DNA from: Acidobacteriota bacterium
GTDB taxonomy: Bacteria > Acidobacteriota > Blastocatellia > Pyrinomonadales > Pyrinomonadaceae
DNA: 64,000 nucleotides
Direction: 5' to 3'
Assembly (NCBI GenBank): GCA_019242475.1
Contig: JAFAVK010000078.1
Coordinates: 18,809 to 82,808 of the forward strand
Both the position numbers and the translations under genes were made by a program. The notes below the pieces were generated by a model. It saw nothing but the letters and a program-made list of their open reading frames with translations, ran no database searches and had not been told where the DNA came from. Positions 19,512 through 45,397 of this stretch are shown piece after piece (the stretch's first letter is position 1; each line of letters starts with the position of its first letter).

Positions 19512-21062
19512 CTACTTCATCGTTACCCGCGTGCCTCTACCGCGTGAGGGCGAATTCGGGGCCGTCCGCGCCGTCGCCATCCAGGAGGCGTAGTCCGTCC
19601 CGCGCCCGCCCGCGAGCAGAGGGTCTGCCTTCGAGAAGCCGGGCTCGCGGTTCGGGTCGGCGATGCCGCCGACGGGCACGTCGCGCCCGCCGTTGTAGAA
19701 GGTGTTGTCCGCGTGGTCGAAGCCCGAGACCTTCACGCCCCCGCCCGACAGTTGATAAAGCATCGTCTCGTCCACGACGCCCGAGAGGACGAAGACGTTG
19801 TCGCGCAGCGTGAGCCCCCGGGTCAGCGTCAGGCGCAAGCTCCTCCCGCACCCCTTGGGCCTGCTCTCCACTTCGTTGCCCGGCCGGACGAGCAGCACGC
19901 CGCGCTCGCCGATGCCGACGAACGTGTTGTTGACGACCGTCGCGTCCTTCGCCGCCCAGATCGCCACGGGCTCGACGGGCCGCTCGCCCGGCCGCGTCGA
20001 GACGACGAGGTTGTCGCGCGCCGTCATCCCGTACGACTCGAAGCGCGCGAATGAGCAAGGGCGGCCGTGCCGGCCGTCGATGAAGAGGTCGGGGTCGGTC
20101 GAGCCGCCGGAGAAGGCCGCGCCGGAGTTGTCCACGAAGACGTTGGCCTCGACGAGCACGCGCCGCCCTCCGCCCTTCGAAACGACGCCGCGGTGGCTGT
20201 TGCGGATGACGTTGCGCCGCACGACGGCGTCGTCCACGCACGGCAGGTCAACGGCGGGCTTGCGCTGCGCGTTCTTCCCGTCGAAGAGTTCGTTGTCTTC
20301 AATCGTGATGTGGTGCGCCTGGTTGAACTTGACGAGGTAAAGCCTGTCGTCGTCCTGCAAAGGGTCGTAGTCGGGCGTGCAGCCGGCGGGCGGGCAGTCG
20401 TAGTGAATCCTTGAGTTGCGGACGGTGATGTAGCTCGTCCAGAGCGAGCGGTCGTACCACGCGGCCGTGTGTCGGCCGGGCGGGTCGTTCGTCTTAACTT
20501 TATTGAACTCGTCCTCCGGCTCGTAGACGCTATCGCCGTGGACGCCGTTGCGGCGCCGGTTAATCTTCTTGCCGGCGGCATTCGTGTAGTAAGGGTTCGG
20601 GAAGATGTCGAAGCCGTCCACGACGATGCCGCGGGCGAGGTGGAAGCTCACCGAGTCTATGATGACCCCGCGCGGCGTCTCGGCGCGGATGGTGAGCGGG
20701 CGCGCGGGGTCGTAGCGGTAGATTCCGATTGTGTCGGGCCGCGCCGGGTCGGGGACGGGCCGGCGCGGGTCGCCCGACTCCAACTTGTCACTCATCGTCA
20801 GGGTGAGGGAGAGCCTGCCCCATTGCGCCGCCTCGCCCGCCTTTCGGTAGTCGCCGTTCTTCGCGACGACCGTGTCGCCGCTCCCGACGTGCTTGAGGGC
20901 GACGCGCCAGGATTTATAAGGTCTCGTGTAGCTCCCGTCGCCGCGCGCGTCGTCGCCGTCGAGCAGGTGGACGTAGACGGTCTTCCCTTTCGCCTGCGCG
21001 CCCGCGCAAGCGGCGCACAGGAGGAGCGACGCGAGCGCCCATTTTAAAAAGGAGCTATTCAA
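19512..21062 (-). CDS. Secreted right-handed parallel beta-helix repeat protein (pectate-lyase-fold)
   Basis: 516 aa. Signal peptide (MNSSFLKWALASLLLCAACAGAQA). N-terminal TVYVHLLDGDDARGDGSYTRPYKS... is typical of beta-helix proteins. Repeated N-x-(V/I)-x-x-N turns (VRNSRIHY, IEDNELFD, VRRNVIRNS, VEANVFVDNS, ARDNLVV, VVNNTFVG, LRDNVFVL). Confidence 0.75.
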   Translation of the reverse strand: MNSSFLKWALASLLLCAACAGAQAKGKTVYVHLLDGDDARGDGSYTRPYKSWRVALKHVGSGDTVVAKNGDYRKAGEAAQWGRLSLTLTMSDKLESGDPRRPVPDPARPDTIGIYRYDPARPLTIRAETPRGVIIDSVSFHLARGIVVDGFDIFPNPYYTNAAGKKINRRRNGVHGDSVYEPEDEFNKVKTNDPPGRHTAAWYDRSLWTSYITVRNSRIHYDCPPAGCTPDYDPLQDDDRLYLVKFNQAHHITIEDNELFDGKNAQRKPAVDLPCVDDAVVRRNVIRNSHRGVVSKGGGRRVLVEANVFVDNSGAAFSGGSTDPDLFIDGRHGRPCSFARFESYGMTARDNLVVSTRPGERPVEPVAIWAAKDATVVNNTFVGIGERGVLLVRPGNEVESRPKGCGRSLRLTLTRGLTLRDNVFVLSGVVDETMLYQLSGGGVKVSGFDHADNTFYNGGRDVPVGGIADPNREPGFSKADPLLAGGRGTDYASWMATARTAPNSPSRGRGTRVTMK

Positions 21063-21089
21063 CCGACACCCTTTCGCCGACGCCCCGGC

Positions 21090-22442
21090 TCACCTGCCGG
21101 CCGGCGCCGCCGCGCCGACCCAGCGCCCGCCGAGCATGACGCGGCGGACGTTGCGCATGTTCGAGATGTTGGCGAGCGGGTCGCCCTCCACGAGCAGGAG
21201 GTCTGCGAGCTTGCCCGCCTCGACGCTCCCCAGGCGGTCTTCGCTGTGGAAGAAGTGCGCGTTCTCCCAAGTGCCCGCGACGATTGATTCCATCGGCGTC
21301 AGGCCGCTCTCGACGAGCAACTCCAGCTCGCGCTGGTAGGCCCACCCGCGCTCGGCGTGCGGTACGGCCGAGTGCGAGCCGACGACGACGTGCGCGCCCG
21401 CGCGCTTCGCACGCAGCACGAACTCCTCCATGCGCTTGAAGGCGCGGACGTGCATTTCGGTCGTCTCCTTGTCGCCGCGCTGCCGCTCGAAGACGGCGAG
21501 CGTCGGCGAGACGAAGGTGCCGCGCTCGACGATCAGGCGGAAGAGGTCGCGCGCGCGCGGCGAGTTCAGGTCAATCTTGTCCCACATCTCGTAGCGCCCC
21601 TCGCTCCGCGCGCCGTTGTCGGCGAGCACCTTCTGCCGGTACTTCTCCGCCTCGCGCGTCGGCGTCAGGGCCGTGCCGAAGGAGGTGGCGTGCTCGACGC
21701 CGTCCACGCCCGCGCGGATGGCGTCGCCCGCGTCAACTATTTCGAGGTGCGAGGTGACGGGCAGGCCGCGCGCGTGCGCCTCCTCGCAGAGGACGCGGAT
21801 GAGCCCGAGTGGGAGGCGGAAGTAGACCTTGAAGCCGGTCGCGCCCTGCGCGGCGAAGCGCGCGACGCCGGCGCGCACCTCGTCCGCGTCGCGCACGATG
21901 TAGGAGTCCGAAGGGTAGGCGGCGGGCGGCGAGTCGAAGTGCGGCCCCATCAGGAAGAGGCGCGGGACGGGCGCGGCGGCGGCGCGCGCCACGTCGTAAG
22001 CCTCGATCCACTGGCCTGGGTCGCGCACGGAGGTCACGCCGTGCGAGAGGTAGAGCGCGGGCAGCGGGTCGTCGCCGTCGATGTGGAAGTGCGCGTCGAG
22101 CAGGCCGGGCAGCAGCGTCATCCCGCGCGCCTCGAAGACCTCCGCGCCCGCGGGGACTCGCACGGCAGAGCGCGGGCCGACCGCGACGATGCGTTCGCCG
22201 CGCACGACGACCGCGGAGTCGCGGACGGGTGCGCCGCCGCGTCCGTCGATCAGGGTCGCGCCGACGATGGCGATGGTGTGATTCGGGTCTGCCTTCAACA
22301 CCTGGTTGACCTCGACGAGTTGACGACGCCTGGCGGGCGTGCGCGCCGCCGCGCGGCCCCGGCCCTGCGCCGAGACGACGCCACACAGCAGCAGCACGCA
22401 CAGGGCCGCCGAAACACTTCCGCGGATCATTCTCATCATCAT
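21090..22442 (-). CDS. Periplasmic amidohydrolase-family metallohydrolase (paralog of 14245..15504)
   Basis: Signal peptide (MIRGSVSAALCVLLLCGVVSAQ). HxH motif LLDAHFHI, later His residues (VTSHLE, VEHATS, GSHS). Confidence 0.85.
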   Translation of the reverse strand: MMMRMIRGSVSAALCVLLLCGVVSAQGRGRAAARTPARRRQLVEVNQVLKADPNHTIAIVGATLIDGRGGAPVRDSAVVVRGERIVAVGPRSAVRVPAGAEVFEARGMTLLPGLLDAHFHIDGDDPLPALYLSHGVTSVRDPGQWIEAYDVARAAAAPVPRLFLMGPHFDSPPAAYPSDSYIVRDADEVRAGVARFAAQGATGFKVYFRLPLGLIRVLCEEAHARGLPVTSHLEIVDAGDAIRAGVDGVEHATSFGTALTPTREAEKYRQKVLADNGARSEGRYEMWDKIDLNSPRARDLFRLIVERGTFVSPTLAVFERQRGDKETTEMHVRAFKRMEEFVLRAKRAGAHVVVGSHSAVPHAERGWAYQRELELLVESGLTPMESIVAGTWENAHFFHSEDRLGSVEAGKLADLLLVEGDPLANISNMRNVRRVMLGGRWVGAAAPAGR

Positions 22443-22458
22443 TATGGGAACCCGAAAG

Positions 22459-24855
22459 CTATTCCTGTTTGAGTAGGTGGACGCGGAGTCGGCCGTCGCG
22501 CTGCCCCTTGAAGGAGGGTAGGTAGAGGACGCCCGCGCCGTTCGTCATCGCCGTCTGCTGCCAGGCGGGGACGCCGTTGTAGAGGCCGCCGCGCCAGTTG
22601 GCCCGCCCGCCCGTCAGTTGCAATTCGTACTTCGCGTTTGGGCGCAGGCCAGTCACGAGAAGCGCGCTCGACTCCACGTCCGGCACCGTCACCTCGCCGT
22701 CCGCTACACGGCCGTCAACCGCGGCGAAAACGGCGAGCACGCCTCCCTCTATGACCGCGCCCGTCAGGCCCTCGCCGTCGGCCAGCTCGACCCGCCGCAC
22801 GCGCAACGCGCCGCGGTCGCCGATCTCCATGACGTTGAGGAAGAGGTCTTCCTTCGCCGCCTTCGTCGGCGAGACCTCGACGCGCCAGTGCGCGGGGACG
22901 ACGGCGCGCGTGTTCGACTGAAGGAGCTTATCGAAATCCTCCCCCCAGAAGGTCTTCCACATCCGCCGCAGGTACGGGTCTTCGGGGAGCGGCCCGCCCT
23001 CGGGCGGGTCGAGCGGCCAGTTCTGCCCCGAGCCCCACGCGCCGCCGCGCTCGTCGCCGGGCGTCCAGAAGTCGTTGCCGTCCCCGCCGCGCTTCGTCAC
23101 TTCTCGCTCGGCCGGGAGCAGAGTGTGCACGCGCAAAGCGCCGCGGCCGTCCTCGTACGTGAACTCCGAAGCGTTCGTGTAACTCGTCCCGCCGTGGCCC
23201 GTGTCACGCCCGCGTTCGTCGGCGGTGACTTTCGGCTCGCCGACCCCGTGCAAAAGCCAGGTCTTCTTAAAACTCGGGTCGGTGCTGCGCACGCGGTCGA
23301 AGACGTAGAGAACGTTGTCGGAGGGCGTGTAGACCAGCTCGCGCGTGAACAGCTCGACCTTCGAAGAGTTGTAGGCGCGCGTCGCGTCTCCGCGCGCGTA
23401 CTGGTAGGCGCCGGGCTGGTAGTCCACGGCCTCCATCCGCCCCTCGTCCCACAGCTCGCGCGTGCGCTGGAAGTCCTCGCGGCTGCGCACGGTGTTCCAG
23501 TAGCGCGAAGAGTTCATCCGCTGGCCGCCGTCGTTGGCCGCGGGCCAGAGGTTCTCGGCCCAGAAGAAGTGCTCGCGCGGGTCGTAGACGAGCATTGAAT
23601 TATGGGCGATGGTGCGGCGGTAGTAGTTGAGGTAGTGCGGGCTCTCGGTGTCGGTGTAGTCGGCGCCGCTCTCGGTGGCGAGGTAGCCCTTGTGGTAGAT
23701 GGTGAAGTGGTTCTGGTCGAGGTGCTGGTGCTTGGCGAGGTACGGCCCAGAGTTGAACTCGATCCAGGTCGAGTCCGGCCCGAAGCCGTCGCGCATGACG
23801 AGGTGGCCCGTGCCGCGGAAGAGGTGTTGACGCGAAAGCTCCGCCTCCGTCGAGAGCGCCGGGTCGCGCGTCGGGACGGAAGGGTCGTCCCAGAGGAACT
23901 GCGTGACGGGGATGTACCAATTCTTCGTGTCGGGCCAGCCCGATTCGCGCAGCATCCACGCGGCGTAAGGGTCTTTGAAGCGGTGGACGGCGTAGCCGAG
24001 CACCATGTTGTCCTGCGCGCGCATGAACGGAAACTCGTTGTCGCCGAGGCGCGAGGTCGTGCCGTCGGGCAGCGCCTTATAAAGGTAAGTATCCGTGTAG
24101 TGCCGGAAGACCGTGTAGCGCAACGCCGGGTCAACGCCGTAGGCCGTGCGGCCGAGTTCCGCGAGCAGGGCCAGCGGCGCGTAGGTGATGCGCTGGTAGT
24201 CCATCGACTCGTGGTAGCCGCCGTCGGGCGTGATGAAGTCCGTGAGGTCGAGGATGTGCTCCCACACGCGCCGCGCCCGCTCGCGCATCGGCGCCGCCTC
24301 GCGCTCGACCGATGGGTGGCCCTCGACGGCCGTCAGCGCAAACGTCGCGAACGTGAGGTAGCGCACGGTGTAGTTGTGGTACATCGAGAGCGCGGGGTCT
24401 TTGAGCGACTGGTCTTCGAGCATCTGCCCCGCGCCCTTGACCAGCTCCGCGGCCACGCGGTCTTTGAGCGCCGCGTCGAAGCCCGCGTAGTTGTAGAGCC
24501 AGTCGAAGGCGAGCGACCAGCGGACGTAGTCGGGGTAGGTGCGCGAGCCGGCCTTCTCGGGCGGGTGCGTGCGCCGCATCTCCTCGACGGCGCGCCGCGC
24601 GAATGACTCGTCGTTCGTCAGAAGGTACGTGAGCGCCCAGCCCGCCAGATCATCAGAGGGGCGCATCCCCGCGGCGTACCTCGCGCGCAAAGCGGCGAGC
24701 CCCGTGAGCGGGTCGCGCTCGCCCAAGAGCATGCGCGGGCGGACGACCTTCGAAGGCGCGTTCGATTGTGCCCGCGCTGCGCACAACACCGGAAGGCAGA
24801 GTGCGAGCGCAAGCGCGAAGGTCATGCGTTTTGTCGTCGTCATCGTCGTCATCAA
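22459..24855 (-). CDS. Secreted heparinase II/III-like protein (second copy)
   Basis: 798 aa with a signal peptide. Alpha-toroid-like N-half (DYVRWSLAFDWLYNY, SMYHNYTVRYL). Heparinase II/III signature region (SGPYLAKHQHLDQNHFTIYHKGYLATESG ... IAHNSMLV). Confidence 0.8.
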   Translation of the reverse strand: MMTTMTTTKRMTFALALALCLPVLCAARAQSNAPSKVVRPRMLLGERDPLTGLAALRARYAAGMRPSDDLAGWALTYLLTNDESFARRAVEEMRRTHPPEKAGSRTYPDYVRWSLAFDWLYNYAGFDAALKDRVAAELVKGAGQMLEDQSLKDPALSMYHNYTVRYLTFATFALTAVEGHPSVEREAAPMRERARRVWEHILDLTDFITPDGGYHESMDYQRITYAPLALLAELGRTAYGVDPALRYTVFRHYTDTYLYKALPDGTTSRLGDNEFPFMRAQDNMVLGYAVHRFKDPYAAWMLRESGWPDTKNWYIPVTQFLWDDPSVPTRDPALSTEAELSRQHLFRGTGHLVMRDGFGPDSTWIEFNSGPYLAKHQHLDQNHFTIYHKGYLATESGADYTDTESPHYLNYYRRTIAHNSMLVYDPREHFFWAENLWPAANDGGQRMNSSRYWNTVRSREDFQRTRELWDEGRMEAVDYQPGAYQYARGDATRAYNSSKVELFTRELVYTPSDNVLYVFDRVRSTDPSFKKTWLLHGVGEPKVTADERGRDTGHGGTSYTNASEFTYEDGRGALRVHTLLPAEREVTKRGGDGNDFWTPGDERGGAWGSGQNWPLDPPEGGPLPEDPYLRRMWKTFWGEDFDKLLQSNTRAVVPAHWRVEVSPTKAAKEDLFLNVMEIGDRGALRVRRVELADGEGLTGAVIEGGVLAVFAAVDGRVADGEVTVPDVESSALLVTGLRPNAKYELQLTGGRANWRGGLYNGVPAWQQTAMTNGAGVLYLPSFKGQRDGRLRVHLLKQE

Positions 24856-24885
24856 TCGGCCGCGGACTCTTCCCGCGCGCCGGCC

Positions 24886-27800
24886 TCAGAGTCCGCCCGC
24901 GCGGGTCGCGGCCTTGCGCGGCGTGCCCAGCTCCGCGAGTTGCGCGCGCGCCAGCTCGTTCTGCGGTTCGAGCTTGAGCGCGCGCTCGAAGGCGGCGCGC
25001 GCCTCGGCCGTGCGCCCGAGCGCCTTGAGCCCCGCGCCCGCCAGCGCGAAGCGGATCGCGCCCGCGGCCGGCCACGGCTCGGCTTCGAGCATCTGCCGCT
25101 CGTCGTTGAGGCGCGCCAGTCGCTCGTAGAGTGCGCGCGCCTCCGCGGCGCGGCCCACGTGTTCGAGCGCGAGCGCCTTGTAGTAGTAGTGCTCCGACCA
25201 GGGTTCTTCAGGCTGCGTCGGCGAGTTCAAAGCCTCTTCGGCCGCGCGGCGCCAGAGCGCTTCGGCCTCCGCGCGTTTGCCGGCCCGCTCAAGCTCGCGC
25301 GCCGCGGCGACGTACTCGCGCGCCTGCGACTCCATCTCCGGGCGGCCGACGCCGAAGTTCCTCGGGTAGTCGGTCGCCTTCATAAACTCTGCGGCGGCGC
25401 GCGCGTGGTCGCCCGACTGCTGCGCCTTGCGCGCTAGCCCGAGGTGCGCGCGGCGGTAGATGCCCAGCGCCGCCTCCTCGCCCTCGCCCGAGGTGAAGGT
25501 CGTCCGCTCCAACAGCGCCGAGGCGTCCTCGAAGCGCCCGGCGTCCACGTAAGCCGCGGCGAGCGACTGGACGAAGGCGGAGCGTTCGCGCACGGACGCG
25601 GGCGCCGACTCAAGCAGCCTGACGCGGCGGTCGGTCGCGTTCAACGAGGCGAGGAGTTGGTCGGCCTCCACGTAGAGGTGGAAGTCTTCGGGCGCGGCGG
25701 CGACGGCCTGGCCGTACTGTGCGGCGGCCTCCTCCTTGCGCCCGGCGACGACCCACAGGGCGCGCGCGAGGTTGCGCCGCGCGACGACGTTCGACGCGTC
25801 GAGCCGCACTGCGTCGCGCCACGCCGCGAGCGCCTCGTCGCCGCGCAGGAGCGAGGCGAGGACGTTGCCGAGGTAGTACGCGGCGCGGCCGTCATCGGGG
25901 TTCGCCGCGCGGGCCGCGCGCAGCACCTCTATCTCCTCGACGCGGTGCGGGAAGACGAACGCCGGGTCGCCCTTCGCGCCAAGCGCGTACTGCTCGCGCG
26001 CACGCGTGCCGTTGCCGCCCCGCTCGTAAAAGTAGCCGAGCGTGTAACTAATCATCGGGCTCGCGCGGCCCGCGCCCGCGTTGGCGACCGCCTCTTCGAG
26101 GAGGCGCACGGCCTCCTCGCGGCGGCCCGCCGCGGCGTAGTCGAAGGCGAGCGTGAGCACGGAGTCGGGCTCGCGCGCAAGAAGTCTCCACAGCTCGCCT
26201 CGGGCGGCCCGCTCCTTCCCTTCGCCGCCGCGCGCGCGTGCAAGCTCCCCCTGCTCGGAGAGCGCGAGGTAGTCAATCGGCATCTGCCGGAGCACGAGGT
26301 CTATGTTCTGCTGCGCCGCGTCGAAATGCCTCTCAAGCCTTTGTGCGAGCGCGAGCACCGTGCGCGCTTTGAGGTCGCGCGGGTCGAGCATCACGGCCGC
26401 GCCGAGGTGTTCGAGCGCCTCCGCATTTCGGCCAGAGGCCAACGCCATCTCGCCCATGACGTAATGCGCGACCTGCTCCCGGTAGCCCGAGCGCACGAGC
26501 CACGTCAGATGCTCCGCGGCCTCGCGCTCGCGCCCCTGCGCACGCCGCGTGAGCGCGAGGTAGTAGTGCGCGTCGCCCGCGTCCTTGTTGCGCAGCAGCG
26601 CGCGTTCAAGGTGCTCCGCCGCCTTCTCGTACTCGCCGGTTCTCAAGTAAGAGAGCCCCAGCTCCGTGTGCGCGGGCGCGAAGCCCGGGTCGCGCCGCAG
26701 TGACTCTTCGAAGGCCGCGCGCAGCTCGACCTCCTTGCTCTTCTTCGCGTGCGCGAGCCCTTCGACGTAAGCCTGCTCGGCGCTCCCCGCGACGGCGGGG
26801 TCGGGCGTGGGCCGGGTCGCGGGCTTGAACTCCGGGTTCCCGTCAATCGGCGTGTCCGTCGAGTAACGAATCAACTCGCGCCCGTCCTTCGCTTTGACGA
26901 CGACCGCGACCGGCTTGCCGGCGGCACCCGCCGGCAGGTCGAAAGATGCCGCGAAGGTCTTCGCCGGGTCGAGGTCAACCTTCTTCGAACCGACGCGGGT
27001 GCCGCCGGCCTCGACTGTAATCTCCGCGTCGTCGAAGCGCGCGTTGGGGCTGACCGTGACGCTCGCACGATTGCCTTCGACGCTCAGGCGCAGCGCGGCC
27101 TCGCTCGTCGCCTCGCTCCAATCGCCGCCGAGGCGGTTGACGCCGAACCAGTGCTCCGTGAAGTGCTCGACGCGGTGCGGCGCGATGAGCTGGTGCTCCA
27201 ACTGCGTCTCGAACCGCCCGGCCTGGAACTCGACGTACTGGCCGTCCTGCTTGTCGGTCAGCTTCTCGATCCAGATGTGGCCGCCCTCGTCCGTGCCCCA
27301 CGTCCAGGTCTTCTTCCCCGGCATCTCGCGGTGGTCTGCGACGTGGACGACGCCCCAGTCGGACTTCTCGTAGTAGACGCCGAAGAAGTCGCGCGAGGAG
27401 TTGCGCGCAAACAGCGAGAGGAAGTTCGGCACCTCGCGGTAGGTGCCGACGTCCACGCCCTTCTCTTTGGGGAAGGAGAAGACGGGCCAGAAGGCGTGCG
27501 GGTACGCCTCGCGCATGGGGTAGACGAAGCGCATGTCTTCCGAGGCGGGCGCGCCGGCCGTTGACCAGTACCAGTAGCGGCCCGGCAGGAGTCGCCGGTT
27601 GTTCAGGGTCACCTCGGACTCCACGTCCTTGCGGCCGGGCCGGAGGCGGATGGTGACGGCCCACTGCATCCCCTGCACGCGCTCCGTGTCGCCGACGGTG
27701 ACCGCGGCGCTCCCGTCGGCTTCGGTTCGGGTCACGTAGTCTATGGGCGAGACGGTCGTGAGCGTGTGCCCGTCGGGGAAGTTCCACTCGATGCCGCCCG

Positions 27801-28254: not shown

Positions 28255-28285
28255 ATGAATGTTTCCTAAAAACAGTCGCCGACTC

Positions 28286-29437: not shown

Positions 29438-29471
29438 TTCACATGGCGAGTCAACGCGCTTACGCAGTGCG

Positions 29472-31318: not shown

Positions 31319-31323
31319 CGTCG

Positions 31324-32637: not shown

Positions 32638-32672
32638 CTCTTATCCTCCCTTTCGTCTCGGGTCGGGCGTTT

Positions 32673-34514: not shown

Positions 34515-34566
34515 CCGACCCCCGCACGCGTTCATAAACTCGTCTTTAAAGTCTCGAAGCACCGCC

Positions 34567-36315: not shown

Positions 36316-36350
36316 CAGTTACACCCTTCGGCCTCCCGCCGCCTTCCCTT

Positions 36351-37154: not shown

Positions 37155-37199
37155 GTGTGCTCCTTACATTTAAAAAGACTCGGGGGAATGATTTCGCGT

Positions 37200-39368: not shown

Positions 39369-40343
39369 CTACCTTGCCCTCGCCCCCGCGAGGGCTTCGA
39401 GCGTGCGCCCGATCTCTTCGAACTCGCCCTCTCCAAGCCCCGGCCCCCAGGGGTCGTGCGCCGCCTCCGAAGGGAGGACGCCGAGGTGCGCGAGCGCCCA
39501 GAGCACACGGCGGATGTAGCCCTCCAACGGACGGACGAAGAAGCATTCGGCCAGCGCGTCCACCTCCGCCGAGAGTCGCAGGAAGCGCGCGGCGTCGCCC
39601 TCCGCGTGCGCGCGTATGAGGCCGGCCTGTAGCTCGCAGCAGACCGCGCCCATCCCGATGAGGGCGGAGCGCGCCCCGCGCATGAGGCTGTAACCTAAGA
39701 AGCGATCCTCGCCCGTGATGAGCAGCTTTTCCGGGTGGCGCGCGGCGAGCCGGCGCGAAACGTCCTGAAAGGTCATCACGCTGTCGAGCGTCGCCATCTT
39801 GATGCCGACGACCTCCGGCATCGAGAGCAGCTCGTCGAGCACCGACGGTTCGTAGCTGATGCCGCCCGCCTCCTCGTACAGGTAGAAGAGGATTAAGGGC
39901 AGGCCGACCGAGGCGAGCCGCCTGTGATGTTCGACGATCAGCTCGCCGCGCCGCTCTTGCCCGCGCAGCCAGACGGGCGCGTAGGCGAGCAGCGCGTCGG
40001 CGCCGAGCGAGGCGGCGCGCTCGGCCATCTCGACGGCGTCGGCCGTGGCGCGCGCGGGGTCGTCTGTGCGCCGCGAGCCGGCGCCCGCGGCGACGACTCC
40101 GCGGGGAAGCGCCGCGCGCCAGTCCGCGAGAACGCGGTCGGCCGTCTCGCGTTCGAGCAAGAGCCCGCGCCCCGTGTGCGCCCAGACGGCGACGCCCGCG
40201 ACGGGCTGCGCGGCCATGTAGCGCAGGTACGACTCGTGCCCGCCCGCGTGGAGCCGGCCGTCCTCGCCGAGCGGCACGGGCACGGCCGCGACGAGCCCGC
40301 CGTCGAGCCGCGCGCGCAGTCTCTCTGTCGCCTCTTGGTTCAT
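39369..40343 (-). CDS. DapA / N-acetylneuraminate-lyase family class I aldolase-like protein
   Basis: 324 aa. Schiff-base lysine context VVGIKMATLD (compare DapA IVGIKEAT). The N-terminal GTTGE motif is degenerate here (AHTGRG). Confidence 0.75.
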   Translation of the reverse strand: MNQEATERLRARLDGGLVAAVPVPLGEDGRLHAGGHESYLRYMAAQPVAGVAVWAHTGRGLLLERETADRVLADWRAALPRGVVAAGAGSRRTDDPARATADAVEMAERAASLGADALLAYAPVWLRGQERRGELIVEHHRRLASVGLPLILFYLYEEAGGISYEPSVLDELLSMPEVVGIKMATLDSVMTFQDVSRRLAARHPEKLLITGEDRFLGYSLMRGARSALIGMGAVCCELQAGLIRAHAEGDAARFLRLSAEVDALAECFFVRPLEGYIRRVLWALAHLGVLPSEAAHDPWGPGLGEGEFEEIGRTLEALAGARAR

Positions 40344-40346
40344 CGC

Positions 40347-41585
40347 TCAGCCGACGTACGGGACGGAAAGCAGGTTGTTGAGGACGAGCGTGAGCGCGCC
40401 CTTCAGGCTCGGCCGCACGTCGAACGACGAGCGGCGGATGGCGACGGGCTGCTCGCGCGGGGCGAGCACGCTCTTCGCCGTCTCGGCCCGGATGAGCGGC
40501 TCGACCAGGCCCCACGCCCTCGTGATCTCGCCGCCGACGACCACCACGTCCGGGTCGAGCCCGTTGATGAGGCCCGTGATGCCGATGCCGAGGTAGCGCG
40601 CCGTCTCGGAGACGGCCTCGGTCGCCGCCGGGTCGCCCGACTCGACCAGCTCGACGAGCTTGCGCATCGAGGGCGCGCGGCGGCCCTGCGCGCCGCGGAG
40701 CTGCTGGTAGCGGGCCACCGTCGCCTTGTCCGAGGCGTACAAGTCCCAGCAGCCGCGCTGGCCGCAGCGGCACTCGGGGCCGTTGAGGTCGATCATGACG
40801 TGGCCGAACTGGCCGGCGACGTTGTTGCCGCCGCGGTAGAGCGCGCCGTCGATGACGACGCCGCAGGCGAGGCCCGCGCTGACGCCGACGTAAAGCAGGT
40901 TGCGCGCCTGCGCGAGCGCCTTGCCGTGCCAGATCTCGGCGAGTGCGGCGCAGCGCGCGGAGTTGTCGATGGTGACGGGCAGGCCCGAGGACTCCTCCAG
41001 CCACTCGACGACGGGGACTTCGCGCCAGGGGAGGACGACCGAGGCGAGGAAGCGTCCCGCCTGGCTGTTGACGGGGCCGGGGAGGCTGACGCCCACGCCG
41101 GCCGCGTCGATGAACTCGGCGTGCTCCTCGCGCAGGCGCTTGACCTCGCGCCCGATCTCGCCGAGGAAGGAGCGCGCGTCCGCGCCCGTCTCGAAGCTGC
41201 GGCGGGCGACGATGCGGCTGTTGAAGTCGGCGAGCGCGAGGATGGTCTCGTCGGCGCGCACGTCGAGCCCGAAGAGGCCGTGGCGCAGCGGGTTGAGCCG
41301 GAGCGGGGTCGGGGGCTTGCCGCCGATGGGGGTGGTGCGCCCCCCGCCGTCGTCTTCAATCAGGTAGCGGTCGCGCAGAAGCTCGCCCGTGATCATCGAG
41401 ACGGTCGCCTTGTTGAGCCCGCTCACCTTCGCCAGCTCGGCGCGAGAGATCGGCTGGCGGTCGGAGAGGATGCTCAGCAGGATGCGACTGTTGACGAGCC
41501 GCAGCGTGTCGTGGCCGGCCGCGCGCACCGAGTCCAGGTTCGGCTTGCGCGACATGCCGCCGCGGGTTGAGACGGACTTCGACAT
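40347..41585 (-). CDS. ROK-family transcriptional regulator (second copy)
   Basis: Start taken at MSKSVSTRGG... (ATG 41585). HTH region (VNSRILLSILSDRQPISRAELAKVSGLNKATVSMITGEL). ROK signature (VGVSAGLACGVVIDGALYRGGNNVAGQFGHV) and Zn motif CRCGQRGCWD. Confidence 0.9.
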   Translation of the reverse strand: MSKSVSTRGGMSRKPNLDSVRAAGHDTLRLVNSRILLSILSDRQPISRAELAKVSGLNKATVSMITGELLRDRYLIEDDGGGRTTPIGGKPPTPLRLNPLRHGLFGLDVRADETILALADFNSRIVARRSFETGADARSFLGEIGREVKRLREEHAEFIDAAGVGVSLPGPVNSQAGRFLASVVLPWREVPVVEWLEESSGLPVTIDNSARCAALAEIWHGKALAQARNLLYVGVSAGLACGVVIDGALYRGGNNVAGQFGHVMIDLNGPECRCGQRGCWDLYASDKATVARYQQLRGAQGRRAPSMRKLVELVESGDPAATEAVSETARYLGIGITGLINGLDPDVVVVGGEITRAWGLVEPLIRAETAKSVLAPREQPVAIRRSSFDVRPSLKGALTLVLNNLLSVPYVG

Positions 41586-41640
41586 CTTTACTACTCGCCT
41601 TCCCTTCCTTGTTGGTTGCGCAAGTGTAGCGGCACGGGCC

Positions 41641-41684
41641 AAAGGAAAGGAAGGCAGAGGGGCGCGGCCGTGGCCCCTCTTGCC
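41641..41684 (-). terminator. Intrinsic-terminator-like hairpin plus U-rich tract after the second receptor gene
   Basis: On the minus strand: GGCAAGAGGGGC-cacggccgc-GCCCCTCTGCC (plus-strand 41653..41684, 11 bp with one bulged T). It is followed by UUCCUUUCCUUU (plus-strand 41641..41652). It starts 23 nt after the stop codon at 41708..41710. Confidence 0.55.
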
Positions 41685-41707
41685 TTCCCCGTTGCCGCGA
41701 CGCCGCT

Positions 41708-44700
41708 TCAGAAGGTCAGGCGCAGCCGCAGGCGGATCGTCCGGCGGTCGTCAATGCCCTCGTCCGCGTAGCTCTTCCGGATGCGGCCGAAGTCCGGGTT
41801 GAACTCCACGCACGTCCCGCCGTCCTGCGCCGCGTCCGACTCGCAACTGATGTTGCGAATCGGCTGGAGGCGCCCGGCGCCGTCCACGCCGAGGAAGATC
41901 GTGCCGACGTTGGAGAAGTTGATGGCGTCGTCAACGTTCGTCGGCGAGTGCAGCGGGTGGTTGAAGGCGTTGTTGAGGTCGGCCCCGACCTCCAGCTTCA
42001 TCCCCTCCCTGATGCGGAAGCTCTTGCGCAGGCCGAGGCTCGCGCCCCAGGTGCCCGGGCCGGTCAGCGCGTTGCGGCGGACGAGGTTCGGGTCGTCGAG
42101 CAGGCCCGCGCCCATCGAGGGCGGCGCGAAGGCCGCCACGTTGAAGATGGCCCCGGCCGTCCCGCCGTAGGGGCTCGTGCCCGAGGCGAGGATGGGGCGG
42201 AACGAGGTGCTCGTGGCGAAGCCGCCGAGCGCGTCTATCGAGTCGCTGGCGACGTTGCCGGGGAAGACCGGGTCGCAGTTGCCGCAGAAGTAGAAGGGCG
42301 TGAAGCCCGTGCCGCTCTTGGCGAACATGTTCCAGGAGAGCTGCCAGCCGCCGAGCGTCTGGTCGAGCCACGGCGCGGCGTCGGTGCCGTACGCCCGCCC
42401 CTTGCCGAACGGCAGGTCAACCAGGCCGTAGGCGATGAAGCGGTGGCGCGAGACGAAGGCGTCGCGGCTGAAGTCGTTGCCGGGGTTGAACTGGTTGTAG
42501 ACCGTCCCGCCCAGCGACGAGTTGCCGGTGTCGAGGCCGCTGCCCTTCTGGTCGAGGAGCGTGTAGCTGACGTTGAAGGTGAAGCCGTTCGAGAAGCGGC
42601 GGTTGGCCTCGACCTGCAAGGCGTGCGAGCGCCCCGTCCCGATGTTGTCGTAGCTGAGCAGGAAGGTGCCCAGCTCGGGGAACGGCAGGCGCGCCCGGTC
42701 GGCGTCGGAGATGACGCAGTCGCCGTCGTTCGGCGAGCAGGGGTCGCCGGCGTCGTTGCGCGTGCCGAACGGCGTGTTGCTCGGCGGGAGCAGGTTCAGG
42801 TCGGAGCCGCCGATCAGCCCGTGCAGACGGCTGCCGAGGTAGGAGACGCGCAGGCCCGTCTTCCAGCCCACCTCGTGCTCGACGGTGACGTTGTACTGCT
42901 CGATGCGCGGCTGCTGGAGGTCGAAGGGGATCAGGTTAACCGACGGCACGGTGCTGGCCGCGTCGAGGCGGCCGCCGCTGAAGGGCGTCTGCCCCGCGGG
43001 CGTCAGGCCGCCCGGCCAGCCGCCGAGCGAGAAGCCGCCGGCGGTGCGCGCCCTGCGCCCCTGGTTGAAGGGCACGGAGGCGAGCGCGTCGCGGATGCCC
43101 TGCGCGGCCGAGGTCGGGAAGAAGAAGCCGTAGCCGCCGCGCAGGACGGTCTTGTCGGTCAGACGCCAGGCCAGGCCGAGGCGCGGCGCGAAGTTGTTCT
43201 TGTCGGCGTTGACGAGGCCGCGCGGGAGGCCCGCCTGCTCGGCCGTCACCACGCCGTAGTTGACCATCGCCGGGTCGATGAGCGGGATGACCGAGGCGTC
43301 CGGCACGACGAAGCGGCCGCGGCGCCCGTTCGCCCCGACGAAGGTCGGGTCGAAGTTGACGAGCAGGTTGTTCGCCTCGTTGAAGGGCGTGAGCAGCTCG
43401 TAGCGCAGGCCCAGGTTGAGCGTGACGCGCGGGTGGATGCGCCAGTCGTCCTGCACGAAGAGGCCGTGCTCCCAGTTCGAGGCGTCGAGGCCGGGCCGGA
43501 GCTGGTTCACGTAGAAGGCCGAGTTCGCCGGCTGGCCGAGGAGGAAGCGCCCGAACGGGTCGAGGTTGGTGCCCGTGTAGTCGATGCGCCCGCGCGGGTT
43601 GCCGCGGTTCGCCGTGAAGTCGTCCACGGCGCGGTTGCGCACCGAGTCGAAGCCGCCCTTGAAAGTGTGCTTGCCCTTCGACCAAGTCACCGTGTCGCCG
43701 AAGGTCATCAAGTCCTGGTTGAGCCGGCGGTCAACGCTCCGGCCGCCGTTGGTGAAGCGGGTGAAGTTCTGGATGCGCAACTCCGGCTGGCCGAAGGTGT
43801 CGAGCGGGACGGAGCCGATGACCGAGCCGACCGCGCTGATGTCCGCGTCGCTGAAGCCGATGGAGGTGTAGAACTGGCGCAGCGTAATCGGCGCGTGCGA
43901 GAAGACGTTTTGGCGGTTGAAGCCGCCGCGCAGCTCGTTGACGAGCGTCGGGCGGAAGACGCGCGTGTAGGAGAGCGAGAGGGTGTGGTTGGTCTGCTCG
44001 TTCTCGCGCAGCCCGAAGGCCGGGTAGGCCGTGCCGGCGACGGCGCCCGCGTCCCGGGGCCGGTTCTGGAAGTTGTAAACCGCGTAGAACTTGTCGTTCG
44101 GCGAGAAGTCCTGATCGACGCGCGCCGTCACGAGGTCGCGCGTCTCGCGCTGCGTCAGGTTCTGCGCGAAGTTGACGAGGCGGCCGAAGGAGTCGGTCGG
44201 CGCGTCGAGGCTCGACTTCGGGTAGTAGACGTTTATGAGCTTGGCGACCGTCGGGTTGATGAGGCGCTGCGGGATGTTGATGAAGCGGCGCGTGCTGCCG
44301 ACCAGGACGGTGTTGTTCGCCAGCTCCTGCGCCGTCAGCAGCGGCAGAATGTTCGCCGGGACGGCCGGCTTGCGCGCGTTGCTGATCTGCGAGAAGTCGC
44401 CGTTCAGGAGCCGCTGGCCGGGCAGCCCGCTCCTGGACGAGAAGCGGATGGGCGTCAGGTTCCAGCGGCGCTCGTAGGAGCCGAGGAAGAAGGTGTGCTT
44501 GGAGCCGGGGACGGGGCCGCCGATTGAGCCGCCCGTCTCGTTGAGGTTGAAGTAGGGCTTGGGAAAGTCCGGCGCCGCCGGGTTCGGCGTGAAGTTCGCC
44601 AGGTCAATCTTGTCGCCGATGCTCCAGGCCGCGAGCGCCGAGTTCTTGTTGTTGTAGAAGAGCGACCCGTGGTACTGGCTCGTGCCGCGCTTGGTCTCGA

Positions 44701-45397
44701 TGCGGATGTTGGCGATGCCGGCGTACTCGGCCGAGAAGTTGTTCGAGAGCACGGTCAGCTCGCCGATGGCCTCGAGCGACGGCTGGCTCGTGGTCGGCTC
44801 GCCGAAGATGCCGCCGTTCGAGCGCTGGCCGTCGAGCGAGAAGGAGGCGCCGTAGCTCTGCGCCCCGATGAACTTGAAGGCCGTGTCCTCGTTCCCCGAG
44901 GTGATGTTCGGGTTCAGGTAGAGGAAGCTGTAGATGTCGCGGCTGTCGCGCGGCAACTCGGTCAGTTGCTGGGTCGTCAGGTTCCCACTGATCGTCGGCG
45001 TCTCGGTCTGAATGATCCCGGCTTCGGCCGTCACGTCCACGGTAGTGGTCGCCTCGCCGACCTCGAGCCTGGCGTCGGCCCGCACCACGTCGCTGCCCGT
45101 CAGCACGGCACTGATGACGGTGGTCTTGAACCCCTGGGCGGTGACGGTCACGCGGTAATTGCCGTACTTGAGACCGGCCGCCTCGTAGTAGCCCTCCCCG
45201 TTGGTCTTAAGATCACGCGAAGTGTTAGTCGCCAGATCCGTCACCTGCACCGAGGCGTTCGAGATCACCGCGTCGCTGGGGTCGGTCACGGTGCCGCGGA
45301 TCGTTCCGAGGTTCGTACCTTGCGCGAGCGCCGCGACCGGCACGAAAACGAGGCACGCAGCCAACAGGATGGCTGACAAGACTCCGTTACTTCTCAT
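41708..45397 (-). CDS. Oar-like TonB-dependent receptor with N-terminal carboxypeptidase-regulatory-like domain (second copy)
   Basis: Start taken at MRSNGVLSAILLAACLVFVPVAALAQ (ATG 45397, AAGGAG 7 nt upstream). CarboxypepD_reg-like domain (GTIRGTVTDPSDAVISNASVQVTDLATNTSRDLKTNGEGYYEAAGLKYGNYRVTVTAQGFK), plug, and a long barrel ending ...RLRLRLTF. Confidence 0.9.
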   Translation of the reverse strand: MRSNGVLSAILLAACLVFVPVAALAQGTNLGTIRGTVTDPSDAVISNASVQVTDLATNTSRDLKTNGEGYYEAAGLKYGNYRVTVTAQGFKTTVISAVLTGSDVVRADARLEVGEATTTVDVTAEAGIIQTETPTISGNLTTQQLTELPRDSRDIYSFLYLNPNITSGNEDTAFKFIGAQSYGASFSLDGQRSNGGIFGEPTTSQPSLEAIGELTVLSNNFSAEYAGIANIRIETKRGTSQYHGSLFYNNKNSALAAWSIGDKIDLANFTPNPAAPDFPKPYFNLNETGGSIGGPVPGSKHTFFLGSYERRWNLTPIRFSSRSGLPGQRLLNGDFSQISNARKPAVPANILPLLTAQELANNTVLVGSTRRFINIPQRLINPTVAKLINVYYPKSSLDAPTDSFGRLVNFAQNLTQRETRDLVTARVDQDFSPNDKFYAVYNFQNRPRDAGAVAGTAYPAFGLRENEQTNHTLSLSYTRVFRPTLVNELRGGFNRQNVFSHAPITLRQFYTSIGFSDADISAVGSVIGSVPLDTFGQPELRIQNFTRFTNGGRSVDRRLNQDLMTFGDTVTWSKGKHTFKGGFDSVRNRAVDDFTANRGNPRGRIDYTGTNLDPFGRFLLGQPANSAFYVNQLRPGLDASNWEHGLFVQDDWRIHPRVTLNLGLRYELLTPFNEANNLLVNFDPTFVGANGRRGRFVVPDASVIPLIDPAMVNYGVVTAEQAGLPRGLVNADKNNFAPRLGLAWRLTDKTVLRGGYGFFFPTSAAQGIRDALASVPFNQGRRARTAGGFSLGGWPGGLTPAGQTPFSGGRLDAASTVPSVNLIPFDLQQPRIEQYNVTVEHEVGWKTGLRVSYLGSRLHGLIGGSDLNLLPPSNTPFGTRNDAGDPCSPNDGDCVISDADRARLPFPELGTFLLSYDNIGTGRSHALQVEANRRFSNGFTFNVSYTLLDQKGSGLDTGNSSLGGTVYNQFNPGNDFSRDAFVSRHRFIAYGLVDLPFGKGRAYGTDAAPWLDQTLGGWQLSWNMFAKSGTGFTPFYFCGNCDPVFPGNVASDSIDALGGFATSTSFRPILASGTSPYGGTAGAIFNVAAFAPPSMGAGLLDDPNLVRRNALTGPGTWGASLGLRKSFRIREGMKLEVGADLNNAFNHPLHSPTNVDDAINFSNVGTIFLGVDGAGRLQPIRNISCESDAAQDGGTCVEFNPDFGRIRKSYADEGIDDRRTIRLRLRLTF

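Follow-up and report, generated by a model that had tools for sequence, protein, structure and literature searches.

We found that a 64,000-nt stretch of DNA from a Pyrinomonadaceae bacterium (phylum Acidobacteriota; contig JAFAVK010000078.1, positions 18,809 to 82,808), which we refer to in its full length as the window, carries 16 tightly packed minus-strand genes (window positions 19512–45397) belonging to a regulon whose probable role is to import and degrade, and in part to recycle, an acidic polymer containing N-acetylhexosamine (HexNAc). The general model that we favor, at a probability of about 0.55, is a SusD-less carbohydrate utilization system led by a TonB-dependent receptor and directed at an acidic HexNAc glycan, akin to the carbohydrate utilization loci containing TonB-dependent receptors (CUT loci) and the polysaccharide utilization loci (PULs) of other bacteria. 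On balance we also take the 16 genes to be the main transcription unit of a larger, 26-gene regulon of ~41 kb (window 19.5–60.5 kb); the boundaries drawn in the initial annotation of this DNA were too narrow, as conserved synteny and an operator motif extend the system to ~60.5 kb. The same annotation's picture of a SusD-less degradative locus that is led by a TonB receptor, with most of its proteins from families lacking characterized members, was supported, and we found no published description of this locus in the literature.

The genes, numbered G1 to G16, are consecutive open reading frames (ORFs) that run from the G1 ATG at 45397 down to the G16 stop at 19512 (window G+C ~69%), an arrangement borne out by ORF listing, by translation and by the stored, independent gene calls for the source contig (97.6 kb, metagenomic, in ENA), in which the genes and their lengths were identical. 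With the starts that we chose, intergenic distances were −4 to 45 nt (G11 overlaps G10 by 4 nt), the one exception being a 122-nt gap between G1 and G2; when G8 is started at the ATG at 34514, its spacing from G7 is 52 nt. Gap measurement and RNAfold agreed with the initial description of gaps of −4 to 52 nt plus one 122-nt gap holding a terminator-like hairpin. Pfam and NCBIfam scans of the window proteins, the source of the family assignments given below, reproduced the protein families named for all 16 genes, with the beta-helix of G9 recovered through AlphaFold. An Rfam scan of the whole window gave 0 matches to riboswitches or leaders, and a pattern scan for sigma-70 promoters and terminators at positions 18000–37900 (the 122-nt gap lies outside this range) did no better than on shuffled sequence.

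The composition of the region is that of a CUT locus, with a receptor (G1), two importers (G7 and a major facilitator superfamily, MFS, transporter), exported enzymes that retain catalytic motifs (G8 and G14) and a ROK-family regulator (G2) in one conserved block, and CUT-like behavior, namely induction and TonB-dependent glycan uptake, is predicted for it. G1 (41708–45397, minus strand) encodes a 1229-residue Oar-like TonB-dependent outer-membrane receptor with a signal peptide (PF25183, 3e-157) and further domain matches to CarboxypepD_reg (3.5e-17) and TonB_dep_Rec_b-barrel (27.3 bits), the Plug domain being absent among the Pfam matches listed. G7 (34567–36315, minus strand) encodes an inner-membrane importer of the sodium:solute symporter (SSS) family (PF00474, 3.7e-36; TIGR00813, 161 bits). 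None of the 26 genes or their flanks gave a SusD-family Pfam match, so the adjacent SusC/SusD pair that defines a Bacteroidota-type PUL is missing. Across the region, the Pfam and NCBIfam scans also returned no significant match to SusD, GH88, GH105, KduI, KdgK or KdgA in any gene, confirming the absences first reported.

The nature of the substrate is indicated chiefly by two exported enzymes. G14 (22459–24852, minus strand) is an exported, heparinase-II-like (PL21-like) lyase candidate (Hepar_II_III_C, 1.3e-9) that matched heparinase II (PDB 2FUQ) in a phmmer comparison with E = 2.7e-44 over ~520 residues (73–599 against 87–607), a homology with PL21 that covers its catalytic module of alpha/alpha toroid and beta-sandwich. 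In heparinase II, Tyr257, His406 and His202 are the catalytic residues and His408, Asp425 and His451 are the Zn ligands. In the alignment (where the chain index is the residue number minus 25), G14 conserves Tyr257 (ESMDY), His406 and His408 (KHQHLD) and His451 (TIAHNS), with Asp425 replaced by Glu. It is therefore plausible that G14 works as a PL21-like lyase, and such an activity implies a uronic-acid polymer. G8 (32673–34514, minus strand) is an exported, DUF4091/GH123-related protein resembling beta-N-acetylhexosaminidases (GH123_cat, 29.3 bits against a gathering score of 23.1); it matched PDB 8K2F, an "oligosaccharide-releasing beta-N-acetylgalactosaminidase", with E = 2e-15, and its YMPDEPG motif aligned with the catalytic Asp-Glu (ADE) of 8K2F and 8K2J. 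DUF4091 proteins with this Asp-Glu motif use substrate-assisted catalysis (PMC11087588), and because that mechanism needs a 2-acetamido sugar, its retention in G8 points to a HexNAc-containing substrate; hydrolysis of beta-GalNAc or beta-GlcNAc glycosides is predicted. The earlier statement that the locus has no classical glycoside hydrolase (GH) signature was thus wrong for G8, and two more GH-like exported proteins are encoded just upstream of the 16 genes.

In total, ten exported enzymes are encoded, namely G14, G8, G9, G16, G13, a DUF4832 protein, a GH127/GH88-like protein, a CocE/NonD hydrolase and two amidohydrolases, and export signals were found on all ten of these predicted extracytoplasmic proteins. 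G9 (31324–32637, minus strand) is a lipoprotein (lipobox LAGC) whose AlphaFold2 model (pLDDT 87) is a right-handed parallel beta-helix. The window protein gave no Pfam match at E ≤ 0.01 and no NCBIfam match, while PF13229 is present in some of its homologues; Foldseek returned only generic matches, to GH136, PL9, PL6 and PL31 proteins and to phage tailspikes, where TMq did not exceed 0.52 for solved structures and reached 0.60 with one uncharacterized phage beta-helix protein. Judged by its model, G9 is a beta-helix of no described family. Its identity was 80–94% in related loci and 56–61% in Myxococcota, Vicinamibacteria and Thermoanaerobaculia; the homologues at 56–61% (Sorangium, Labilithrix, Polyangiaceae, Vicinamibacteria, Thermoanaerobaculia) often carry extra VCBS, PKD, SLH or MYXO-CTERM parts, and the one in Sorangium (locus L089, 8001–9671) stands alone among uninformative neighbors. 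G16 (19512–21062, minus strand) is also an exported right-handed beta-helix protein (Beta_helix, 30.9 bits against 25.9), and, with no BLASTP similarity between the two, the idea that G9 and G16 are paralogues was dropped.

G13 (24886–28254, minus strand) is an exported protein of 1122 residues that joins a DUF5107 domain (8.8e-66) to a long region matching TPR families. The only PDB match of its DUF5107 domain was 5CD6, an uncharacterized structural-genomics entry (6e-31), and the one paper on DUF5107 that we found in the literature is unrelated. G15 (21090–22442, minus strand) is an amidohydrolase of the dipeptidase/N-acyl-amino-acid hydrolase (cog1228) type (Amidohydro_1, 1.7e-19) with a signal peptide; the model for the Caulobacter Xaa-Pro dipeptidase, which has a cut-off of 500, gave it 133 bits. 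Exported G15, the CocE/NonD hydrolase, an Amidohydro_2 protein, the GNAT protein G5 and the NSAR/OSBS-subfamily protein G12 together form a set suited to amide chemistry.

Upstream of G1 we found a promoter-like element, TTGCGC-N18-TATAAG (45562–45591, minus strand, read from the sequence), followed downstream by a 21-bp palindrome, TTAGT-N11-ACTAA (45461–45481), which is a putative operator. Both were found by eye in an alignment of the G1 upstream regions of the window and the related loci L003 and L004, and the TTGC...TATAAG element also precedes the orthologous receptor genes of these two loci. A second exact copy of the palindrome lies in a divergent promoter region (51908–51928), and a third (52225–52245), with 1 mismatch, follows a TATAAG box and precedes a kinase gene. 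At ≤1 mismatch the 64-kb window thus holds 3 matches against 0.11 expected, a number reached in 0 of 100 shuffles. In L003, L004/5, L086 and L087 the palindrome stands at the equivalent position with a spacer that differs in sequence, and in L086 and L087 it is found at both promoter regions. In 1.25 Mb of related loci, exact palindromes were confined to the G1 promoter and to the kinase/Amidohydro_2 intergenic region of L075, where the palindrome precedes Amidohydro_2 and then a G13 paralogue. Because the G1 promoter and the divergent promoter region have the palindrome in common, the operon is tied to four further exported enzymes and to a salvage operon.

The candidate binder of this palindrome is G2 (40347–41585, minus strand), a ROK-family transcription regulator with a winged helix-turn-helix (wHTH) of MarR/IclR type and a ROK domain (1.5e-56). 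Its architecture is that of a ROK repressor, with wHTH, ROK domain, a retained Zn motif (CRCGQRGC) and a kinase ATP motif that has degenerated (GLDVRAD at residue 106, in place of DxGGT); its best NCBIfam matches are the NagC/Mlc models, far under cut-off (146 against 650). We infer that G2 binds TTAGT-N11-ACTAA and that the three transcription units behind the palindromes make up one regulon. The 122-nt gap between G1 and G2 (41586–41707) folds into a GC-rich hairpin (RNAfold, −60.4 kcal/mol), and the hairpin and the T-tract that follows it, TTTCCTTT (41641–41690, minus strand), resemble a terminator or attenuator. Hairpins of unrelated sequence occupy the equivalent gap in L003 and L004, and conservation as structure rather than as sequence fits a terminator or attenuator that would set the ratio of receptor to enzymes.

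Four more minus-strand genes, all with export signals, lie between G1 and the divergent promoter region (45.6–51.8 kb). The first gene of this unit encodes an Amidohydro_2 hydrolase (50629–51837; PF04909, 1.3e-26) with a Tat-type signal (RRRW motif), and the next encodes a protein of unknown family (48998–50590), also with a Tat-type signal (twin-arginine motif SRRGFL), that is syntenic in L086 and L087. This protein has faint, sub-threshold Pfam matches to GH127_cat (E = 0.0065) and GH88 (0.08), and PF07944 was found in 3 of 120 among its homologues listed. The CocE/NonD (peptidase S15) hydrolase (47140–48933) has a Sec-type signal, matches Peptidase_S15 (8.7e-60) and PepX_C (1.8e-51), and exceeds the TIGR00976 cut-off (477 bits against 66). 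The DUF4832 protein (45656–47059; DUF4832, 5e-19), likewise with a Sec-type signal, has a weak Glyco_hydro_42 match (20.1 bits) suggestive of a GH42-like TIM barrel; its gene is syntenic in L003–5 and L086–88, and the mention of DUF4832 in papers on the Pel operon is an association only. Between the window (45656–48933) and L086 (11685–15022) or L087, the genes for the S15 hydrolase and DUF4832 have changed places, the remaining block being collinear.

The divergent, plus-strand operon begins with a gene for an 848-residue fusion of a galactokinase-like GHMP sugar-1-kinase and a GlmU-like nucleotidyltransferase (52303–54849; GHMP_kinases_N/C, GalKase_gal_bdg, NTP_transf_3), whose NCBIfam scores (gal_kin, 146 bits; GlmU N-terminal region, 72 bits) are both under cut-off. 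It is followed by an MFS transporter of the anion:cation symporter type (54853–56178; MFS_1, 1e-55; best NCBIfam match TIGR00893, the D-galactonate transporter subfamily, at 234 bits and under cut-off), by two tandem archaeal-type phosphoglucosamine mutases (56189–57535 and 57532–58893; TIGR03990, 467 and 513 bits against a cut-off of 439), by a HAD-family phosphatase/mutase-like protein (58905–59564; motif DMDGVLIDSE, with HAD Pfam matches for the L086 gene at the equivalent position), and by a ROK-family sugar kinase (59577–60500, N-terminus MSYAIGIDLGGTNIK) that has an intact DLGGT ATP motif and no HTH and is syntenic in L086 and L087. The kinase scored 71–121 bits on glucokinase, ManNAc kinase and GlcNAc kinase models, in every case under cut-off. 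Two other genomes (L086 and L087/88) have the three units in an identical layout. Hexosamine kinases and mutases do exist, but in this divergent operon and not in the 16-gene set. Coupling of a GHMP-type anomeric kinase to a nucleotidyltransferase means that a scavenged monosaccharide could be converted directly to a nucleoside-diphosphate (NDP) sugar, and the fusion (GalK-like and uridylyltransferase-like), the two GlmM-type mutases, the ROK kinase, the NagB-like protein G6 and the anion-type MFS together point to hexosamines and an acidic monomer. Directly after the ROK kinase, a 721-residue ORF (60504–62669, plus strand) without a Pfam or NCBIfam match overlaps an ORF for a GFO_IDH_MocA oxidoreductase (62398–63357).

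Among the cytoplasmic proteins of the 16-gene operon, only G12 (28286–29425, minus strand) scored over a curated specific-family cut-off. This enolase-superfamily protein exceeded the cut-off for the subfamily of N-succinylamino acid racemases and o-succinylbenzoate synthases (NSAR/OSBS; TIGR01928, 239.8 against 200.65) and matched N-acylamino acid racemases in the PDB with E = 1e-78. Its motifs KIKI (residue 171), DANAAY (198), MIEQP (221), CADES (246) and NIKVQRVGG (270) supply the KxK, the D/E/D metal ligands and the second Lys with K-x-x-R that catalysis calls for, the second-shell Arg corresponding in role to R266 of the subfamily (PMC12006748). By these motifs and its score, G12 is a bona fide NSAR/OSBS-subfamily enzyme, and NSAR genes outside menaquinone operons typically belong to a pathway converting D- to L-amino acids (PMC12006748). 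The GNAT N-acyltransferase G5 (37200–38054, minus strand) carries a C-terminal Acetyltransf_18 domain in its Pfam matches.

G6 (36351–37154, minus strand) is a NagB-like deaminase/isomerase with an altered phosphate site (PF01182; E = 1e-26 against NagB in the PDB) that remained under the NagB NCBIfam cut-offs (110–123 bits against 237–326). Its catalytic motifs HLDEY and GENGHLAF, which hold the counterparts of Asp72 and His143 of NagB in E. coli numbering, were invariant or nearly so in an alignment of 24 sequences (window G6 and homologues from the fetched loci), and the equivalent of Lys208 is kept. G3 (39369–40343, minus strand) is a divergent class I aldolase-like member of the DHDPS/NAL family (PF00701, 6e-20) with the Schiff-base Lys in a GIKMAT context. 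It could be assigned to none of the specific members DapA, NanA, KDG aldolase or KdgD (NCBIfam 31–50 bits against cut-offs of 206–382), and its PDB matches formed a flat list (E = 1e-10 to 1e-6). G10 (30482–31318, minus strand) is a xylose-isomerase-like TIM-barrel protein of the sugar isomerase/epimerase class (PF01261, 9e-38) with only weak, sub-threshold NCBIfam matches (IolO, hydroxypyruvate isomerase), and G11 (29472–30485, minus strand) is a D-isomer-specific 2-hydroxyacid dehydrogenase (PF02826, 1e-50) for which every specific NCBIfam model stayed under cut-off. A second D-2-hydroxyacid dehydrogenase gene, ~30% identical to G11, converges on the end of G16 from the plus strand (18185–19450).

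G4 (38057–39361, minus strand) was recognized through a DHO_dh Pfam match below the gathering score (20 bits against 27, covering only the 50 residues 47–96) and through its AlphaFold2 model (pLDDT 73, pTM 0.78, four disordered insertions). The top Foldseek matches were the FMN domain of dihydropyrimidine dehydrogenase (DPD) and class 1A dihydroorotate dehydrogenase (DHODH), with E = 1e-9 to 1e-7 and a probability of 1.0, at weak TM scores of 0.45–0.5 and 15–19% identity. On this model G4 is probably a much-diverged member of the DHOD/DPD fold and a flavoenzyme. As a lead only, we take its KNPFGKASGQ (residues 56–65) and PSCKYH (160–165) to resemble the FMN-binding NPxxxASG and the catalytic-Cys loop LSCP of class 1A DHODH/DPD; in 30 homologues, Cys162 shows conservation of at least 90%. 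Homologues ~70% identical to G4 occur in metagenome-assembled genomes (MAGs) of Blastocatellia and Pyrinomonadaceae. Its homologue clusters in metagenomes number more than 3000, nearly all of them called "hypothetical" where the source gives a name.

Relatives of the locus were gathered with the DUF5107 domain of G13 as probe, in a scan that covered a single genome for each species and gave 80 loci, nearly all from Acidobacteriota MAGs and the majority from Pyrinomonadaceae. Searching the window proteins against all fetched loci with tblastn (83 related loci, from other genomes), we found at least 8 operon genes in 29 of 83 and at least 10 in 16, a count that is near the upper limit reachable with a 10-kb flank per locus; all were collinear and co-directional, and the proteins of the 29 loci were ~55–85% identical to those of the window. 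The synteny check in Acidobacteriota that had been proposed at the outset thus came out positively, and such conservation in relatives argues that the arrangement was selected and is not accidental. Median protein identity across loci ran from 53% for G5, the least conserved, to 84% for G9, the most conserved. The initial remark that no characterized locus has this composition stood as far as function is concerned; the locus is, however, no isolated case, being conserved in Pyrinomonadaceae genomes and having thousands of metagenomic homologues.

The relatives also include variants. G5–G7 are missing in L012 and L015, and G6, G9 and G12 in L064, while L071 has a set reduced to G1, G8 and G13 and L076 has these three with G2 and G15. 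G13 itself, found at 56–93% identity in 77 loci from several Acidobacteriota classes, occurs without other operon genes in loci of Terriglobia, Bryobacteraceae and Vicinamibacteria. Its neighbors in variant loci include an M20 peptidase (after G13 in L012), a CN-hydrolase, a penicillin amidase, an Amidohydro_3 protein and a GH109 protein; an Amidohydro_2 gene adjoins the G13 homologue in L052, L058, L073 and L075, and a GHMP kinase/nucleotidyltransferase gene does so in L049, L056, L069, L075 and L081. One Blastocatellaceae MAG has two G13 paralogues, one in a large operon (L046) and the other in L075 (1363–12686), where it comes directly after Amidohydro_2, behind the same palindrome and opposite a kinase/MFS/mutase operon; this smaller arrangement may be the ancestral core. 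Near full-length G13 homologues we also saw a short DUF5107-like gene (L076, 6516–7601; 361 residues, 26% identity to G13) and, in L081, a gene for a TPR and GT41-like protein (13241–15454) with an apiosidase-like (GH140-type) gene nearby.

In the mechanism that we propose, the exported set would depolymerize and strip an acidic HexNAc glycan bearing amide-linked substituents, either peptides or N-acyl-amino acids, for which microbial exopolysaccharide or cell-envelope material would be the likeliest source. The Oar-like receptor G1 would carry oligomers over the outer membrane, and the SSS transporter G7 and the anion-type MFS would bring monomers into the cytoplasm. There, the hexosamine part would be catabolized through the ROK kinase, the GlmM-like mutases and the NagB-like G6, or alternatively salvaged to a nucleotide sugar by the GHMP kinase/nucleotidyltransferase fusion, and the acidic part would be handled by the isomerase-class protein G10, the dehydrogenase G11, the DHOD-like flavoenzyme G4 and the aldolase-like G3. 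D-amino acids or N-acyl amino acids would fall to the GNAT G5 and the NSAR G12. To judge from the shared operator, G2 would control all three transcription units through TTAGT-N11-ACTAA, with the hairpin after G1 adjusting the expression of the receptor relative to that of the enzymes. The acidic amino-sugar polymer first suggested as substrate therefore stands as the best-fitting class, given G14, the active-site residues of G8, the NagB-like G6 and G12, while the overall interpretation attached to it was supported in part.

Several observations weigh against this model. The assigned functions are all computational predictions, all of the related genomes retrieved are MAGs, and only four proteins (G12, the two mutases and the CocE/NonD hydrolase) exceed a curated specific-family cut-off. 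In G14, the segment corresponding to His202/Glu205 (SMYHNY) aligns only with a one-residue ambiguity, and the protein does not reach the HepB equivalog level in NCBIfam (188 bits against a cut-off of 600). In G6, ASAPS stands in place of the TGGT loop and Gly (NDGAF) in place of the Arg of N(S/A)R(F/Y)F in 24 of 24 aligned sequences, and the Gly was likewise seen when HMMER aligned G6 with NagB of B. subtilis and of S. mutans; lacking the canonical phosphate-binding Arg and loop, G6 is a doubtful participant in standard GlcN-6-P catabolism, and its substrate may not be a 6-phosphate. Binding of the palindrome by G2 is itself a prediction, and the window encodes a second ROK regulator at 2013–3269. 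The variant loci without some of the genes suggest that the 16 genes may be several modules and not one obligatory pathway. Finally, with no NagA, GH88/GH105, KduI/D or KdgK/A, the uronate branch is a guess, and a non-orthologous uronate route through isomerase, reductase and aldolase is pure inference, as none of G3, G10 and G11 is at a specific cut-off.

A bolder variant of the scheme, which we consider quite unlikely, is that the cytoplasmic proteins G3, G4, G6, G10 and G11, together with G5 and G12, make up a new route that needs no kinase and takes uronic acids that are lyase-derived or amino-substituted. In such a route, G4 may, by analogy with orotate and fumarate reduction, reduce the alpha,beta-unsaturated carboxylate of a 4,5-unsaturated uronate, and G6 may deaminate and isomerize a non-phosphorylated amino sugar that has a carboxylate in place of the 6-phosphate, while G9, G16, DUF5107, DUF4832 and the Tat-exported unknown may each found a new CAZy family.

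We weighed other explanations for the same genes. One, which strikes us as unlikely, is a system for scavenging and recycling cell wall (peptidoglycan or necromass), in which the exported amidohydrolases and S15 hydrolase would remove stem peptides and the HexNAc-ase would cut the glycan, GNAT and NSAR would convert D-amino acids, the D-2-hydroxyacid dehydrogenase would oxidize MurNAc-derived D-lactate, and amino sugars would be deaminated by G6 or salvaged to UDP-sugars in an AmgK/MurU-like manner. Much of the inventory suits it: G12, over its subfamily cut-off, shares an operon with a GNAT; G15 is exported and of dipeptidase type, as the CocE/NonD hydrolase is exported; an M20 peptidase follows G13 in L012; and a NagB-like enzyme, GlmM-like mutases, a ROK kinase, a sugar-1-kinase/nucleotidyltransferase fusion and a D-2-hydroxyacid dehydrogenase are all encoded. 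However, the Pfam and NCBIfam scans of the region found no lysozyme, lytic transglycosylase, MurNAc-L-Ala amidase, MurQ etherase, NagA or NagZ, the heparinase-II-like lyase, the two beta-helix proteins and the anion-type MFS have no role in such a scheme, and G15, being exported, cannot be the cytoplasmic desuccinylase of a D-to-L pathway. Turnover of the organism's own exopolysaccharide or envelope glycan, with nucleotide-sugar salvage returning monomers to biosynthesis, seems to us decidedly unlikely: the predicted co-regulation of the catabolic units with the kinase/nucleotidyltransferase fusion and two hexosamine mutases leading toward NDP-sugars, and the housekeeping-like retention of G13 with kinase/Amidohydro_2 neighbors across Acidobacteriota classes, would be expected of it, whereas a dedicated TonB-dependent receptor and two importers point to external uptake, ten exported hydrolases and lyases are many for self-remodeling, and the conserved block has no glycosyltransferase or polysaccharide export genes.

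The drop-out of modules in relatives (L012, L015, L064, L071, L076, and G13 alone in other classes) and the possibility that the hairpin after G1 is a true terminator would both accord with a mosaic, in which independent modules for glycan depolymerization, D-amino-acid conversion and hexosamine use are merely co-transcribed in Pyrinomonadaceae. Against this stand the 29 loci with at least 8 genes, all strictly collinear, the gaps of −4 to 52 nt and the single operator motif that joins three transcription units in four genomes; module drop-out is also compatible with variation in substrate decoration, and we hold the mosaic to be improbable. We give very little credence to sialic-acid-type catabolism (with G3 as a NanA-like lyase) or hydroxyproline-glycoprotein catabolism (with G3 as a pyrroline-hydroxy-carboxylate deaminase beside S15/Xaa-Pro-type hydrolases). 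The DHDPS-family enzyme, ROK protein, NagB-like enzyme and SSS transporter fit superficially, as do the Pfam name of S15 ("X-Pro dipeptidyl-peptidase"), the likeness of G15 to the Caulobacter Xaa-Pro dipeptidase and the faint GH127-like protein, GH127 being a family that includes an enzyme acting on hydroxyproline-linked arabinosides. Yet G3 scored 33–39 bits on NanA models against cut-offs of 281–382 and resembles NanA no more closely than DapA, and the S15 protein scored 477 bits on CocE/NonD against 76 on Xaa-Pro dipeptidyl-peptidase models (cut-off 642). We found no NanE, sialidase, hydroxyproline epimerase or D-hydroxyproline dehydrogenase family, and the PL21-like lyase and the GH123-type enzyme would be left unexplained. 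A sialic-acid (Nan) cluster was rejected on these grounds. Catabolism of hydroxyproline-rich glycoproteins built on S15, the Xaa-Pro-type amidohydrolase, the enolase and DHDPS was not supported, the S15 protein being a generic CocE/NonD hydrolase and G12 an NSAR/OSBS.

The favored reading, a SusD-less utilization system for an acidic HexNAc glycan, can be set against described systems, the nearest of which are proteobacterial CUT loci and the glycosaminoglycan PULs of Bacteroides. Proteobacterial CUT examples are the GlcNAc and N-glycan CUT systems of Xanthomonas campestris and the NagA receptor of Caulobacter. Like them, the window clusters a SusD-less TonB-dependent receptor with a transporter, exported enzymes, amino-sugar enzymes, a repressor and a shared operator; unlike them, it has an Oar/CarboxypepD_reg receptor and a ROK regulator (GntR or LacI in CUT loci), its enzymes are mostly from uncharacterized families, and a nucleotide-sugar salvage operon and NSAR/GNAT are added. 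With the glycosaminoglycan (GAG) PULs of Bacteroides, for which the heparin/heparan sulfate PUL of Bacteroides thetaiotaomicron and other GAG PULs served as comparison, it would share outer-membrane import of lyase-made uronic acid/HexNAc oligosaccharides, and it has in common with them a heparinase-superfamily lyase, a ROK protein and cytoplasmic amino-sugar processing. It differs from these in lacking SusC/SusD, a hybrid two-component sensor, GH88, sulfatases and KduI/KduD/KdgK/KdgA, in its PL21-like lyase (PL12/13/15 in the PULs), and in having an Oar-type receptor, ROK regulation, a predicted co-regulated salvage operon and the NSAR/GNAT pair. Heparinase II of Pedobacter heparinus (PL21; PDB 2FUQ, 3E80) has active-site residues in common with G14, whose gene context is without sulfatases.

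Sugar-1-kinase/pyrophosphorylase salvage is exemplified by Bacteroides Fkp, Pseudomonas AmgK/MurU and plant glucuronokinase with UDP-sugar pyrophosphorylase; unlike Fkp/AmgK-MurU-type enzymes, the window fusion has the order kinase then transferase and is linked to a degradative TonB-receptor operon. In common with the enterobacterial NagC/Mlc regulons, G2 combines wHTH, ROK domain and Zn motif, and the palindrome stands at divergent and distant amino-sugar promoters; in contrast, G2 scores far under the corresponding cut-offs, and the operator TTAGT-N11-ACTAA is a predicted one. The architecture of DUF4091/GH123-related enzymes (Sumida et al., 2024, PMC11087588; 8K2F, 8K2J), with an N-terminal beta-sandwich, a TIM barrel and DUF4091, matches that of G8 throughout, the overall similarity to 8K2F being low and the E of 2e-15 coming from three short stretches. 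An operon for D- to L-amino-acid conversion with N-succinylamino acid racemase has been described (Sakai et al., 2006, as cited in PMC12006748); as far as that secondary account goes, the likeness lies in an NSAR/OSBS enzyme and a GNAT in one operon, and the difference in that the window has no cytoplasmic M20 desuccinylase and places these genes within a glycan utilization operon. Another possible role of G12 is that of the cell's own OSBS in making menaquinone.

Elsewhere in the window, a second PUL-like locus (2013–10967, plus strand), without the TTAGT-N11-ACTAA motif, comprises genes for the ROK regulator mentioned above (2013–3269), an Oar-like TonB receptor (3398–6688), an MFS transporter (6724–8124), a short-chain dehydrogenase (8146–8913) and a lyase-like protein with DUF4962 and Hepar_II_III_C (8913–10967). 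Between it and the 16-gene operon, genes for two large Sortilin-Vps10/BNR-repeat proteins (10995–14237 and 15512–18397, minus strand) flank a 411-residue ORF without a Pfam match (14234–15469), and a BNR protein of 40% identity is encoded beside the G13 homologue of L069. The window edge carries a fatty acid desaturase gene (1070–1936, plus strand) that is unrelated to the operon.

In dry and nutrient-poor soils, the Pyrinomonadaceae and Blastocatellia belong to the dominant bacteria and to those least often cultivated, and little is known of what they live on. The regulon proposed here is one of the most conserved large gene blocks of these groups, and its predicted operator offers a simple experimental entry, through DNA binding by G2 and the effector sugar. 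At least six of its proteins are without a characterized relative (G4, G9, G13/DUF5107, G16, DUF4832 and the Tat-exported unknown), and these six are promising candidates for new families of carbohydrate-active enzymes and for a new cytoplasmic pathway. With more than 3000 homologue clusters in metagenomes for G4 alone, the substrate of the system probably matters to the turnover of carbon and nitrogen in soil.

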